From Synergistales bacterium (lineage in GTDB: Bacteria > Synergistota > Synergistia > Synergistales > JAFGMB01): a DNA stretch of 64,000 nucleotides. The first letter of the stretch is position 1; each line of letters starts with the position of its first letter. The notes under the pieces were generated by a model, which had not been told where the DNA came from, made no database searches, and was given only the letters and a program-made list of their open reading frames with translations. This document shows, one piece after another, positions 22,161 to 50,249 of this stretch. The stretch lies in contig OY762654.1 in the NCBI GenBank assembly GCA_963666205.1, forward strand, positions 2,848,001 to 2,912,000, given 5' to 3'. The position numbers and the translations under genes are program-made.

Positions 22161-22237
22161 GGGCCTATAGCTCAAGTGGCTAGAGCCACCGGCTCATAAC
22201 CGGAAGGTTCCTGGTTCGAGTCCAGGTAGGCCCACCA
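22161..22237 (+). tRNA. tRNA with CAU anticodon, most likely tRNA-Ile2 (lysidine-modified)
   Basis: Cloverleaf: GGGCCTA/TAGGCCC acceptor stem, CCGG-CTCATAA-CCGG anticodon arm, TTCGAGT T-loop, encoded CCA. It lacks initiator features (1-72 mismatch, GGG/CCC anticodon stem) and resembles Bacillus Ile2. Confidence 0.93.
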
Positions 22238-23274: not shown

Positions 23275-24270
23275 ATGAAAAAAAGAGTTTTCAGCGGAAT
23301 GCGTCCTACAGGTAAACTTCATCTCGGCCATCTGGCAGGTGCTCTTACTAACTGGATCAAACTTCAGGATGACTATGAATGCGTCTATGGAATAGTTGAT
23401 TGGCATGCCCTGATGTCTGATTATGCAGATAGTAGCAAGATAAGGGGAAATTGCAGGGAGGTCCTGCTTGACTGGCTTTCTTCCGGTCTGGATCCTGATA
23501 AGAGTATAATATGTGTTCAATCCCATGTGCCTCAGCATGCTGAACTTCATCTGGCGCTTTCGATGATCACTCCCCTTGGATGGCTTCAGCGATGTCCTAC
23601 ATATAAGGAACAGATAATCAATATACAAAACAAGGATCTGAGTAATTATGCCTTTCTTGGTTATCCGGTACTTATGGCTGCAGACATTCTTCTGTATAAA
23701 TCACATTTGGTACCGGTAGGAGAGGATCAGTCGGCACACCTTGAAATCTCAAGAGAGATAGTCCGGAGATTTAATAATTTTTACGGAGAAATCCTTGTAG
23801 AGCCACAGATATTACTTACCCCCACTCCCAAAGTACCAGGAACAGACGGTAGGAAAATGAGCAAGTCCTACGGAAATGCAATAGATATTTCAGATTCTCC
23901 TGAAGCTATGTGGGAAAAACTAAGAACCATGATGACGGATCCGGCAAGGGAAAAAAGGAAAGATCCGGGCACTCCAGAGAAATGCCCAGTCTGGGATATA
24001 CATAAGGTCTTTAATAATGATGAAGATCAGAAAGCTGAAATTCATGAAGGTTGCCTGAATGCTGGTATAGGCTGTGTAGAGTGCAAAAAAAGACTTAGAG
24101 AGCATGTCGAGAGAGTCATGGCTCCTATAAGGGAGAGAAGAGCATATTACGAGAAAGATGAAGACCTTCTTACTGATATTCTGATCGAAGGGGCCAGTAA
24201 AGCTAAAATAATTGCCCAGGAAACAATTGATCAGGTAGTGACGGCGATAGGATTTGTCCCAAGAGGCTAG
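23275..24270 (+). CDS. trpS: Tryptophanyl-tRNA synthetase
   Basis: SGMRPTGKLHLGH, YPVLMAADIL, VPVGEDQ, KMSKS. Confidence 0.97.
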   Translation: MKKRVFSGMRPTGKLHLGHLAGALTNWIKLQDDYECVYGIVDWHALMSDYADSSKIRGNCREVLLDWLSSGLDPDKSIICVQSHVPQHAELHLALSMITPLGWLQRCPTYKEQIINIQNKDLSNYAFLGYPVLMAADILLYKSHLVPVGEDQSAHLEISREIVRRFNNFYGEILVEPQILLTPTPKVPGTDGRKMSKSYGNAIDISDSPEAMWEKLRTMMTDPAREKRKDPGTPEKCPVWDIHKVFNNDEDQKAEIHEGCLNAGIGCVECKKRLREHVERVMAPIRERRAYYEKDEDLLTDILIEGASKAKIIAQETIDQVVTAIGFVPRG

Positions 24271-45688: not shown

Positions 45689-45717
45689 ACCATTTGCCCT
45701 TGATGAGGGGTGTTATT

Positions 45718-46290
45718 ATGGCAATAACAGAAATGCCAGACGAATGGAGTTTTTTCCTTAACCTTCCAGATCCCGAAGAAAGTGGAGTAATTGAAAAATC
45801 CTGGGAAATCCAGATATTGTCCGAATTAGCTTATCTGGGACAGGATTACAGGTTTCTGGAACCACTGAAAGTTGATGTTAGAGGGAGCTGGACTAGACCT
45901 GATTTTTATGTTGAAATATGGGTCGCTACAAAGGTCGAAGTCCCATGTTCAAGGTGTCTTGATCCAGCAGGAGTTGCAATTAAGGAGAAATTCAGTTATC
46001 TTTATGGTCTGTCTTCTAAAAACGATTCTTCCGAGCGTTTTGATGGACATGGAGATGATAGTTTTATTTGTGTCGATTCATGGGGGGCTTATCTGGATAT
46101 AACATCCCAGATATGGGATTCTTTTATATTGAGTCTCCCGGGGAAGGTGCTTTGTAAAGAGGATTGTCACGGTATTTGCCCGGTTTGCGGAGTTAACCTT
46201 AACAGTGGATCATGCAATTGTATCAGGAAAGAAGTTGATCCAAGATTTGAGATTTTAAAGAACATCGAGCAGGATGATACAGGAAAATAG
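45718..46290 (+). CDS. yceD: YceD/DUF177 family protein
   Basis: CSRCL, LCKEDCHGICPVCG, DPRF; precedes rpmF. Confidence 0.9.
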   Translation: MAITEMPDEWSFFLNLPDPEESGVIEKSWEIQILSELAYLGQDYRFLEPLKVDVRGSWTRPDFYVEIWVATKVEVPCSRCLDPAGVAIKEKFSYLYGLSSKNDSSERFDGHGDDSFICVDSWGAYLDITSQIWDSFILSLPGKVLCKEDCHGICPVCGVNLNSGSCNCIRKEVDPRFEILKNIEQDDTGK

Positions 46291-46561: not shown

Positions 46562-46597
46562 AAACTGGGGGGCTTTAAGCCCCTCAGTTTTGTTTTT
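46562..46597 (+). terminator. Intrinsic terminator after rpmF
   Basis: AAACTGGGGGGC-TTTAA-GCCCCTCAGTTT plus T-tract. Confidence 0.85.
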
Positions 46598-46609
46598 AGT
46601 TTCTCCCCC

Positions 46610-46638
46610 TTGACCATTCCCTGAAAAATAATTATACT
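46610..46638 (+). promoter_or_regulatory. Promoter of the fapR-plsX-fab operon
   Basis: TTGACC-N17-TATACT. Confidence 0.8.
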
Positions 46639-46660
46639 CACCATGTCTTTGGAGCTGATA

Positions 46661-46677
46661 TTAATAGCAGGTACTAA
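46661..46677. promoter_or_regulatory. FapR operator
   Basis: 17-bp TTAATAGCAGGTACTAA (reverse complement TTAGTACCTGCTATTAA) fits the Firmicutes FapR consensus TTAGTA-N5-TANTAA; lies between the -10 and the SD. Confidence 0.82.
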
Positions 46678-46694
46678 AAGGGGAGCTGTTCAAA

Positions 46695-47288
46695 ATCCGT
46701 TCACTTAATAAAAGAGCCAGGCAACAGAAGTTACAGAAACTGATAAGACAGAACCCGCTTTTTACAGATAAAGAACTTTCCGAAAATCTCGGAGCAAGTC
46801 TTGGTACTGTTCGTCTTGATAGAGCACTTATGGGTATCCCAGAGCTTCGGGAACGTATGCGCCTTATGGCTCAAAAAGCAACGAGCAAGCTCAGGTCACT
46901 GAAGCAGGAAGAAGTGACAGGAGAGCTTCTGGAGTTGGAGCCTAATAAATGGGCTCTTTCCATGCTTCAAACAAAAAAGGATATGGTCTTCAGGCATACC
47001 GATCTTATATGGGATCATTATATATATGCCCATGCCAGCTCTCTTGCCATTGCTGTGATAGAAGCGGATATGGTAATAGTCACTTCAATGAGGGGAAGAT
47101 TTAAATCCCATGCCAAGGTTGGAGATATACTTACTGCCAGAGCAAAAGTCGGAATACATAAGGGTAACAGGTATATCGTGAGTGTGCGTACAAAGGTCAG
47201 TAATGAAGAAATCTTTGTCGGAAGATTTATAGTCAGTTCTGTATATCCTGAAGAACAAAATACCTTGGAGGGGAGTGTGCGCTTTTGA
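46695..47288 (+). CDS. fapR: Fatty acid biosynthesis regulator FapR (probable non-canonical ATC start)
   Basis: Frame is open from 46668 and encodes RSLNKRARQQKLQKLIRQNPLFTDKELSENLGASLGTVRLDRALMGIPELRER (FapR HTH) ahead of the track's ATG 46830, then a hot-dog domain. The start position is inferred. Confidence 0.88.
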   Translation: MRSLNKRARQQKLQKLIRQNPLFTDKELSENLGASLGTVRLDRALMGIPELRERMRLMAQKATSKLRSLKQEEVTGELLELEPNKWALSMLQTKKDMVFRHTDLIWDHYIYAHASSLAIAVIEADMVIVTSMRGRFKSHAKVGDILTARAKVGIHKGNRYIVSVRTKVSNEEIFVGRFIVSSVYPEEQNTLEGSVRF

Positions 47289-48289
47289 TCTTGGCTCTTG
47301 ATGCCATGGGTGGAGATCATGCTCCGAAAGAAACCTGTCTGGGTGCGATTGAAGCTTGTGAATTACATTCCGATCTGGAGGTCCTCCTGGTCGGTGATGA
47401 AAATCTTATAAAAAAAGAATTATCATCAGTTGAAAGAAAAGCTTTAAAAGGTTTACATGTTGTTCATGCGGAGGAATCAATTGGCATGAATGAGCTGCCT
47501 GCTGTAGCTATCAGGAAAAAAAGGCATTCAAGCTTGAGGGTAGCTATGCAGATGGTTCGTTCAGGAGAAGCACAGGGATGTGTTTCAGCAGGGAATACTG
47601 GTGCTATTGTTGCAGGAGGAGTTCTGGTCATAGGGCGAATACAGGGTATTGACAGGCCTGCCCTTGGTGTTGCTCTTCCAACCCTTAATAAGGATACCTT
47701 TCTTCTGGATGTAGGAGCCACAGTGCGATGCAAACCTGTAAACCTATACCAGTTTGCCCTGATGGGTGACTTTTATGCAAAACATATCCTGGGTGTCGAT
47801 TCTCCCAATATTGCCCTTCTGTCCAATGGGACCGAAGAAATAAAGGGAGATGAAGTCGTTTCTGCTGCAAGGGATCTAATTAAGTCCAGTCTCTTAAACT
47901 TTTCCGGGTATCTCGAGGGAGATTCCATTCCCTTTAGTGTAGCGGATGTAGTTGTCTGTGATGGTTTTACGGGAAATGCTGTCCTGAAATTTGCAGAAGG
48001 CCTTGGACAGGCAATATATTCTATCCTTAAAGAGGAAATGGGGCATAGAGTTCTTCCCAAGGTAGGGATGATGTTCATGCTTCCAATGCTGAAAGATCTA
48101 TGGACTCGTTTTGATTATGAAAAACGAGGAGGGACTCCTCTTCTTGGGGTTAATGGAGCCGTCATAAAAGCTCATGGAAGATCTAAATCTACTGCTATAA
48201 AGAGTGCTCTGAGTGTTGCGAGAAACTTCGTCCTACAACAGGGGGTAGAACTGATTAAACAAGAATTAGAGCAGGGAGGAGAACGCTAA
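47285..48289 (+). CDS. plsX: Phosphate acyltransferase
   Basis: ALDAMGGDHAP, SAGNTGA, DRPAL, DVVVCDGFTGN, KAHGRS. Confidence 0.97.
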   Translation: MILALDAMGGDHAPKETCLGAIEACELHSDLEVLLVGDENLIKKELSSVERKALKGLHVVHAEESIGMNELPAVAIRKKRHSSLRVAMQMVRSGEAQGCVSAGNTGAIVAGGVLVIGRIQGIDRPALGVALPTLNKDTFLLDVGATVRCKPVNLYQFALMGDFYAKHILGVDSPNIALLSNGTEEIKGDEVVSAARDLIKSSLLNFSGYLEGDSIPFSVADVVVCDGFTGNAVLKFAEGLGQAIYSILKEEMGHRVLPKVGMMFMLPMLKDLWTRFDYEKRGGTPLLGVNGAVIKAHGRSKSTAIKSALSVARNFVLQQGVELIKQELEQGGER

Positions 48290-49298: not shown

Positions 49299-50249
49299 AT
49301 GTGGAATAACAGGGTAACCAGACTTCTTAATATAGAATATCCTTTGATTCAGGGAGGAATGGCATGGGTTGCTGATGCAATTCTAGCTGCTGCTGTAAGT
49401 AATGCAGGTGGTCTCGGAATTGTTGCTGCTGCTAATATGCCCCCGGAACTTCTTGATCTGCAACTGAAAAAAGTTAAGGAACTGACAGATAAACCCTTTG
49501 GTGTAAATATAATGCTTCTTTCTTCGACTGCTGATGATGCCATCGAACTGGCTTATCAACATAAAGTACCTGTAGTGACTACAGGGGCAGGAACACCAGG
49601 CAAGGTGATAGAAAGACTTAAACCAATCGGTACAACCGTAATACCTGTTGTGGCTTCTGTTGCCCTTGCTAAAAGAGCCCAAAAACAGGGAGCCGATGCT
49701 GTAGTTGCAGAAGGAACTGAAGCAGGTGGACATGTAGGAGAACTTACAACTATGGTCCTTGTTCCACAAATTGCAGATTCAGTGGATATACCTGTATTTG
49801 CCGCAGGTGGTATTGCAGATGGAAGAAGCCTTGTAGCTGCTTTTGCCCTAGGGGCAGAGGGAGTACAGATAGGCACCAGGCTGGCTTGTTGCTCCGAATC
49901 CAATATACATGAATCCTATAAACAGTCGATAGTATTGGCAAAAGACAGGAGTACTGTCGTTACGGGAAGATATACAGGACATCCTGTCAGATGTATCAGA
50001 AATAAACTAACTTCTGAACTTGAAAGAATGGAACGGGATAACGTTCCTGTCGAAGAATTTGAAAAACTTGGTAGTGGAAAACTACGGGCTGCTGTTGTAG
50101 ATGGTAACGTCATATGGGGTTCAATTATGGCTGGTCAATGTGCTGCCCTTGTAAAAGCTGTTCAGCCTGCTTCGGATATTATTAAGGAAATGTTCAATGA
50201 GGCAGATGCAGTAATCAATGAACTCTCTCGCATGTTTAGACATGTTTAG
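49299..50249 (+). CDS. fabK: Enoyl-ACP reductase FabK
   Basis: IQGGMAWVA, PFGVNIML, EAGGHVG, AAGGIADG, GSIMAGQ; inside the fab operon. Confidence 0.93.
   Translation: MWNNRVTRLLNIEYPLIQGGMAWVADAILAAAVSNAGGLGIVAAANMPPELLDLQLKKVKELTDKPFGVNIMLLSSTADDAIELAYQHKVPVVTTGAGTPGKVIERLKPIGTTVIPVVASVALAKRAQKQGADAVVAEGTEAGGHVGELTTMVLVPQIADSVDIPVFAAGGIADGRSLVAAFALGAEGVQIGTRLACCSESNIHESYKQSIVLAKDRSTVVTGRYTGHPVRCIRNKLTSELERMERDNVPVEEFEKLGSGKLRAAVVDGNVIWGSIMAGQCAALVKAVQPASDIIKEMFNEADAVINELSRMFRHV

Follow-up and report, generated by a model that had tools for sequence, protein, structure and literature searches.

Translation of the repressor gene fapR of a Synergistales bacterium probably starts at a near-cognate ATC codon behind its own operator

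We analyzed a stretch of 64,000 nucleotides (referred to as the window) from the genome of a Synergistales bacterium (contig OY762654.1, positions 2,848,001 to 2,912,000), in which fapR, the gene of the repressor FapR, heads a plsX/fab cluster. The sequence points to translation of fapR from a near-cognate initiation codon, ATC, at position 46695, the product being a FapR of 197 residues whose N-terminal helix-turn-helix (HTH) is complete, and we put the probability of this reading at roughly 80%. ATC is favored because no canonical start codon yields a FapR with its DNA-binding domain. A preliminary description of the region had proposed that fapR starts at this codon, directly behind its own operator, and the comparison of relatives, the pattern of selection and the Shine-Dalgarno (SD) sequence lend support to that proposal. 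The features on which the argument depends are the following.

46661 to 46677 (no strand assigned): fapO-like FapR operator TTAATAGCAGGTACTAA, a 17-bp imperfect inverted repeat located 22 nt downstream of the -10 box
46678 to 46685 (+ strand): SD sequence AAGGGGAG, which adjoins the operator (SD score, 16)
46686 to 46688 (+ strand): CTG, the rival near-cognate start, three codons before ATC, opening a 200-amino-acid (aa) open reading frame (ORF)
46695 to 46697 (+ strand): ATC, the proposed fapR initiation codon, put forward from the comparison of relatives, the SD and the N-termini of the family
46695 to 47288 (+ strand): proposed coding sequence of fapR (197 codons and the stop codon TGA), with matches to NF003359 and 4a0x
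46764 to 46823, approximate (+ strand): HTH part TDKELSENLGASLGTVRLDR, placed by the 4a0x alignment, the limits of the motif being our own estimate
46830 to 46832 (+ strand): ATG, the first canonical in-frame start and the start of the 152-aa public gene call

The fapR frame contains a TAG at 46665-46667, which is included in the fapO-like operator, and is then open on the + strand to the TGA at 47286-47288. After the TAG, the frame reads CAG GTA CTA AAA GGG GAG CTG TTC AAA ATC CGT TCA, and the earliest in-frame ATG, GTG or TTG is the ATG at 46830, which heads an ORF of 152 aa. The protein read through this frame (P0001) is FapR, with a score of 216.1 bits against the NCBIfam equivalog NF003359 (cut-off, 183 bits). 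Positions 4-183 of the 190 positions of this profile cover residues 12-191 of P0001, and profile position 2 falls on the ATC. Residues 3-183 of Staphylococcus aureus FapR (4a0x) align with residues 5-188 of the query in one continuous alignment (E = 4e-30), and this unbroken full-length alignment matches the two-domain build of FapR, comprising the HTH, a linker helix and a hot-dog effector domain; the organization of the HTH domain is described in PMC3536700. The segment 46695-46829 encodes the N-terminal DNA-binding part of FapR, and translation from 46830 would therefore lose the HTH part. A Pfam scan of the read-through protein returned no family. Among the window ORFs of at least 120 aa, a single one has a start-less run exceeding the 54 codons of this frame; that ORF, as well as the next three, each overlap a longer ORF retained in the window ORF set. 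The length of the run alone is unremarkable, and its meaning comes from the conserved domain that it encodes.

The SD AAGGGGAG is separated from ATC 46695 by 9 nt (46686-46694), corresponding to an aligned spacing of 10 nt. Of 53 long window ORFs, 43 reach an SD score of 11 or higher. The modal aligned spacing of 8-10 nt is found in 18 of these 43 SD-bearing ORFs, and a spacing of 1 or 2 nt in none of them. The CTG at 46686 abuts the SD (aligned spacing, 1 nt), and the ATG at 46830 has no SD, its best match being TGAT with a score of 9. The preliminary description had noted the frame open from the TAG without ATG, GTG or TTG before 46830, the complete FapR HTH encoded in its upstream part, the strong SD placed 9 nt ahead of ATC and the CTG abutting that SD. 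The sequence agrees on the frame, the NF003359 and 4a0x alignments agree on the HTH, and the positions of the SD and of the CTG were both confirmed.

A scan of genome contigs returned 70 matching stretches, of which 26 encode a FapR relative. One of these loci, L026, lacks its 5' end, and the census of Synergistota 5' ends comprised the window and the 25 other loci (26 in total). The start column is occupied by ATC in 12 of the 26 5' ends (the window, L001, L002, L005, L006, L008-L013 and L021), by ATT in three (L015, L016 and L025), by ATG in three (L017, L020 and L023, which read MRSE... where the window reads IRSL...) and by other codons in eight (L003, L004, L007, L014, L018, L019, L022 and L024). 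These counts contradict the outcome, envisaged in the preliminary description, that all close relatives have ATG at this position. A G-rich SD run precedes the codon by 4-10 nt in all 18 of the ATC, ATT and ATG 5' ends and by 5-9 nt in all 15 of the ATC/ATT genes, seven of which (the window, L001, L002, L008, L009, L011 and L015) lack any canonical in-frame start past the operator. The organism of the window is Acetomicrobium-like: the closest locus, L001, belongs to a metagenome-assembled genome of Acetomicrobium hydrogeniformans (98% aa identity). Aligned with the window over 801 bases, L001 shows 41 base differences and no indel, and both ATC and CTG are present. The cleanest second case is L002 (78% aa identity), in which the TAG is followed by ten in-frame non-start codons and then by ATC; the ATC stands behind AGGGAGG and an 8-nt spacer, and GTA is found where the window has CTG.

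The distance between the operator and the codon varies among the ATC/ATT genes (23, 23, 26, 22 [five loci], 23 [three loci], 24, 30, 44 and 32 nt), with all three frames represented, while the spacing between the SD and the codon is constant. A one-base difference in this distance separates L008, L009 and L011 (23 nt) from their close relative L013 (24 nt). Since all three frames occur and L013 is shifted by 1 nt, the stretch up to the SD is non-coding. Since the codons further downstream are conserved, the start must be located between the two, where only ATC or ATT is available. To judge from the 5' ends compared, much of the phylum has the combination of ATC or ATT with an SD, and there is no conserved canonical alternative.

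Comparison of codons 1-45 between the window and L002 revealed 19 synonymous and 10 non-synonymous codon differences, with 9, 5 and 24 base differences at the first, second and third codon positions, respectively. For the six pairs formed among L008, L009, L011 and L013, the same codons show 3-19 synonymous versus 0-2 non-synonymous differences. Over the coding sequence, 21 of the 27 differences between the window and L001 are at third positions according to our own count. Purifying selection on codons 1-45 indicates that these codons are translated. The choice of codon in the start column was also considered. The 15 ATC/ATT genes have ATC 12 times, ATT three times and ATA never in that column. 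In these genes, the remaining seven conserved Ile columns contain 26 ATA, 43 ATC and 30 ATT codons (n = 99). In the window as a whole, Ile is encoded by ATA, ATT and ATC in 36.5%, 34% and 29.5% of the cases, respectively, and the remaining Ile codons of the window fapR are ATA (eight), ATC (three) and ATT (one). The missing ATA in the start column would fit a constraint beyond the mere coding of Ile.

The N-termini of the family were located by a phmmer search against 1.84 billion representatives (50% identity), which gave 278 matches at an E value of 0.001 or less. Among the best 150 of these 278 matches, 58 were full-length, defined as a match starting within query residues 1-10. The offset of their N-terminus from ATC has its mode at 0 (11 of 58) and is between -4 and +5 in 49 of 58, which bears out the earlier statement that the initiator Met of FapR homologues aligns at this codon. 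In a homologue set made of the best 120 of 404 matches at an E value of 1e-10 or less, four FapR proteins sourced from NCBI (P0040, P0066, P0079 and P0120) have M exactly in the Ile column. One of these, P0066, is identical at 187 of 188 compared residues to the product of L006 translated from ATC, both being 189 residues long, from which we infer that the NCBI pipeline already uses ATC in some relatives.

Four additional features define the context of the fapR leader.

46562 to 46600 (+ strand): intrinsic-terminator-like hairpin and T-run after rpmF, with a 13-pair stem at 46562-46590 followed by TGTTTTTAGT
46610 to 46638 (+ strand): sigma-70-like promoter, with a -35 box TTGACC (46610-46615), a 17-nt spacer and a -10 box TATACT (46633-46638)
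46643 to 46708 (+ strand): short upstream ORF of 21 codons, whose ATG at 46643 is 4 nt past the -10 box
47285 to 48289 (+ strand): plsX, whose TTG start overlaps the fapR stop (TTGA)

The promoter scan gave a score of 10 of 12, with one site detected versus 2.3 expected, which alone is not significant. In an alignment of 23 related leaders (alignment A1), the TTGAC and TATACT columns show little or no variation, and we accepted the promoter because its boxes are conserved in that alignment. The operator agrees at 15 of 17 bases with B. subtilis (Bacillus subtilis) fapO, printed as TTAGTATCAGGTACTAA in PMC5788913 and PMC7372789. With up to 3 mismatches allowed, the fapO-like site is unique in the window (0.04 expected by chance), no further FapR box being found in the 64 kb apart from the fapR site. 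The relatives keep the operator in the same place, after the -10 box and before the SD. The placement of an operator directly ahead of fapR, as given in the preliminary description, is supported by both the match to fapO and the position of the site in relatives. The leader RNA (46644-46740) has no significant fold (z = +1.06, with 181 of 200 shuffles folding at least as well), and we therefore propose no structural switch. An Rfam scan of the whole window identified two tRNAs, with no leader RNA element in the vicinity of fapR.

Several observations weigh against initiation at ATC. In eight of the 15 ATC/ATT genes (L005, L006, L010, L012, L013, L016, L021 and L025), the G-run is overlapped by an in-frame ATG, TTG or GTG located five codons upstream. 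For these eight, either the Ile codon may be an internal one or initiation may occur at both sites, and the possibility of an internal Ile weakens the argument drawn from conservation. Ile is also kept behind a canonical start located two codons upstream in P0012 (MTIRS) and P0114 (MRIKS). The two differences between the window and L001 that fall between the TAG and the ATC (46673 and 46691) are both at third positions of the fapR frame; this is a coding-like pattern, but two sites prove nothing. The evidence from the four NCBI proteins with M in the Ile column is at the level of protein sequence. The associations involving the Ile codons and the SD and codon are uncorrected for shared ancestry. 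Finally, SD scoring assumed a generic bacterial anti-SD, since the 16S rRNA of the organism is outside the window. The calls for P0006 (83% identical) and P0007 (82% identical), which are made from a canonical start in the column of CTG 46686 (MFLIRS), also count against ATC and bear directly on the main rival start.

According to this rival, translation would start at CTG 46686 and produce a 200-residue FapR. The start would likewise be non-canonical, CTG being a start codon of translation table 11 that opens a 200-aa ORF. Besides P0006 and P0007, Leu occupies the CTG column in P0002-P0005 and P0132, the difference between the window and L001 at 46691 is synonymous in the CTG frame, and CUG and AUC are described as having similarly low initiation in Escherichia coli (bioRxiv 10.1101/063800). 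However, the CTG abuts the SD, at a spacing that none of the 43 SD-bearing window genes displays, and the six window genes with an SD spacing of 0 or less look like mis-set longest-ORF starts. In L002, the column contains GTA, yet the SD and ATC are retained. For the relative represented by P0132 and P0133, the first canonical start available to the caller is a Met inside the HTH, so the Leu codons of that gene are presumably not TTG. A start in the CTG column is common to no other clade, and we consider initiation at this codon unlikely.

The other explanations fare worse against the same comparisons. The ATG at 46643 could be the start, possibly on a leaderless mRNA, with fapR reached by frameshift or reinitiation. 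A homologous ATG is in the fapR frame and called as the start in the protein calls P0003, P0004 and P0005 (85-91% identical), and the ORF of the window, which spans the operator and the SD, ends at 46706-46708, 11 nt past ATC. In the window and L001, however, this ATG is one base out of frame with fapR, and L002 has no ATG there. It is located 4 nt past the -10 box, closer than is usual for a transcription start, no frameshift-prone motif was seen between it and fapR, and the distance between the operator and the codon covers all three frames in relatives, making this route extremely unlikely. It is very unlikely that a 152-residue protein from ATG 46830 is the only product, i.e., a hot-dog fold without DNA-binding domain preceded by a decaying remnant of the frame, even though this ATG is the first canonical start and the choice of the gene callers on five contigs (P0122). 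Codons 1-45 show mostly synonymous change in several lineages devoid of a canonical start, the promoter, operator and SD upstream are conserved, and the whole 197-residue product is above the FapR equivalog cut-off. Selection on codons 1-45 and the missing SD at 46830 also contradict the outcome, foreseen in the preliminary description, of a product that begins exclusively at Met 46830. The idea that the ATC is an ATG altered by assembly error or by private mutation deserves next to no credence. ATC is one base away from ATG, and L017, L020 and L023 have ATG exactly there, but the same ATC is present in L001 and L002, nine further loci carry ATC and another three carry ATT, and the 152-aa call, which implies that there is no ATG, recurs on five contigs from three sources. 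The assembly error that had been envisaged is contradicted by this recurrence of ATC in independent assemblies, including those of L001 and L002. We rejected the assembly error, the 46643 ATG with frameshift and the HTH-less 152-aa protein on the evidence of the recurring ATC, the frame and selection.

In the sequence, the rpmF terminator is followed by the promoter (46610-46638), the operator (46661-46677), the SD (46678-46685), the 9-nt spacer and the ATC. The initiator tRNA would read the ATC and place Met at the N-terminus of FapR. This was reported in E. coli for AUC-initiated green fluorescent protein (GFP), which carries an N-terminal Met (bioRxiv 10.1101/063800). The same source gives initiation at 1-2% of AUG for AUC, AUU, AUA and CUG and at 10-100% of AUG for the canonical AUG, GUG and UUG in E. 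coli. ATC would support much less initiation than AUG, synthesis of the autorepressor would be slow, and the same mRNA would yield far more lipid-synthesis enzyme than FapR. Operator-bound FapR would repress the operon until released by malonyl-CoA, as in Bacillus and Staphylococcus; in the accounts of PMC5052256 and PMC3536700, FapR represses its own operon via a 17-bp repeat and malonyl-CoA releases it. It is plausible that the weak start keeps the repressor at a low level, and the preliminary description had drawn from this a possible tie between lipid synthesis and the fidelity of initiation. Initiation factor 3 (IF3) is described as barring non-canonical starts (PMC9723500), and a link between FapR output and the level of IF3 would be speculation. 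For the FapR of the window, the malonyl-CoA response and DNA binding are predicted from the Bacillus and Staphylococcus proteins.

To follow the history of the start site, a maximum-likelihood tree was built from 26 FapR rows and rooted at its midpoint. Under this root, the genes with ATG in the start column (L017, L020 and L023) form one clade, and the other 23 rows are its sister, with support of 100/100. ATC/ATT genes are present in both main subclades of the 23-row clade. Canonical starts occur near the column in other members. L003 has an ATG one codon upstream, and L004 has a GTG one codon downstream, behind AGAGGTGA and 8 nt. L018 and L019 have a GTG inside the operator, and L022 has an ATG and then ATC. 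In L007, L014 and L024, an ATG is found five codons upstream, the G-run has decayed to a GGAAAAA-like sequence, and the Ile column contains GCC, GCC and GTC, respectively. The ATG five codons upstream is clearly the start in this clade; the operator half-site AGGTGA is located 4 nt before it and may double as the SD. Overall, an old ATC/ATT start seems to have been replaced repeatedly, the direction of change depending on the root.

A more far-reaching interpretation, which we regard as doubtful, is that a large Synergistota clade inherited AUC/AUU from its ancestor and has long kept the codon under selection, throttling the repressor as the first cistron of the operon, fixing a low repressor-to-enzyme ratio and making the gene responsive to IF3, the factor that rejects near-cognate starts. 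If this were true, FapR dosage, and hence membrane lipid synthesis, would respond to the state of the initiation machinery, and each lineage that adopted a canonical start one to five codons away, or within the operator, would have retuned its repressor-to-enzyme ratio. Under the same assumption, retuning would concern at least three lineages (L003/L004, L007/L014/L024 and L018/L019), and perhaps L022.

The public gene models of fapR disagree in this group. Gene callers confined to ATG, GTG and TTG would be expected to miss an ATC start. P0122 is identical to the 152-aa ORF of the window and is found on five contigs from NCBI, Logan and ENA. In L001, the operator contains GTG in place of GTA, and the public call is consequently a 205-aa protein starting from inside the operator. 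Near-identical genomes thus carry two gene models, of 152 aa (without the HTH) and 205 aa, neither of which starts behind the SD. Among the best 120 of the 404 matches, the calls for the ATC/ATT clades start variously (MEGTS-I, LEGTS-I, VVNEGATS-I, LRGATS-I and long read-throughs), and P0097, P0098, P0108 and P0133 are truncated inside the HTH. The truncated public calls of the relatives are 172-177 aa long, and one of them, P0098, carries the name PaaI-like thioesterase from its source. The gene models published for this fapR and its closest relatives are most likely wrong, and their disagreement has the appearance of an annotation problem that is systematic in the clade.

Near-cognate starts, weak starts on repressor genes, FapR and fapO are all of already known kinds. 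In E. coli, infC and pcnB start with AUU, not AUC. As in fapR, the codon of these genes differs from AUG at the third base only, is conserved in relatives and is preceded by a normal SD, and the cell needs the product in small or controlled amounts. In contrast to infC and pcnB, the clade of the window has mostly AUC (12 of 15), AUU being found in 3 of 15, and fapR encodes a metabolic repressor rather than a translation factor, implying no direct IF3 feedback. A closer functional parallel is offered by E. coli lacI, which is also a repressor gene with a start weaker than ATG. PMC11445065 describes the GTG start of lacI as setting the basal expression of the operon and reports that non-ATG starts have been selected in regulator genes across a family. 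Unlike ATC, GTG is canonical and far stronger. The targets of the lacI product are transcribed separately from lacI; fapR, in contrast, is the leading cistron of the operon that FapR represses.

The fapR-plsX-fab operon of B. subtilis and S. aureus resembles that of the window in the family of the regulator (NF003359; 4a0x, 4e-30), in the 17-bp inverted-repeat operator just downstream of its own promoter and in the order of genes, with fapR first and followed by plsX and fab genes. It differs by the host, here a member of the Synergistota and not a Firmicute, by the addition of fabH, fabK and fabF in the window and by the ATC start of fapR. The passages of PMC5052256 concerned with the distribution of fapR report the gene only from Gram-positive genera. 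The window contains a complete FapR/fapO module in the Synergistota, whereas FapR is treated as a Gram-positive regulator in reviews (PMC5052256). The apparent use of ATC/ATT by fapR in a large part of the Synergistota appears to be new. The same holds for what looks like an old ATC/ATT state replaced several times and missed by the public models for this genome. Our literature search on fapR and near-cognate bacterial starts found no description of a non-canonical fapR start among the papers that it listed. If the assignment is correct, fapR provides a natural near-cognate AUC start conserved across family-level divergence, with several independent switches to canonical starts nearby. The gene is well suited for asking how start-codon strength sets the repressor-to-enzyme ratio on one mRNA.

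Upstream of fapR, the gene order is ackA, a 198-aa ORF and rpmF, the last (ribosomal protein L32, 46312-46509) being identified by TIGR01031 with 65 bits. The terminator-like hairpin marks the end of this upstream transcription unit. Downstream of fapR are plsX, fabH, fabK, fabD, fabG, fabF and rnc. The plsX SD GGAGGGGAG is inside the 3' end of fapR and is followed by 9 nt and the TTG start. The TTGA junction of fapR and plsX is the same in L001-L004 and L007 as in the window, and the junction is ATGCTGA in L017, L020 and L023. The overlap suggests translational coupling, which has to be reconciled with a weak fapR start. The downstream genes that were inspected (plsX, fabH, fabK and fabG) all begin with ATG or TTG behind an SD of their own.

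The window contains a tRNA with the anticodon CAT (22161-22237), in which the 1-72 end is paired and the anticodon stem lacks the three G-C pairs; by the criteria known to us, it is presumably not an initiator but an elongator Met tRNA or tRNA-Ile2. ARAGORN also predicted a 90-nt tRNA-Glu(ttc) at 23445-23534, within the ORF 23275-24270, where Rfam gave no hit at the gathering score, and this prediction is probably a false positive. Positions 49299-50249 encode a FabK-type enoyl-ACP reductase, the score of 450.0 bits being just under the curated cut-off of 453.1. In the interval between ackA and rpmF, the ORF 45694-46290 has no NCBIfam match at an E value of 1e-5 or less. Its longest form has a TTG start without SD, and an ATG found a few codons further in, behind GAGGGGTG, looks like the real start.

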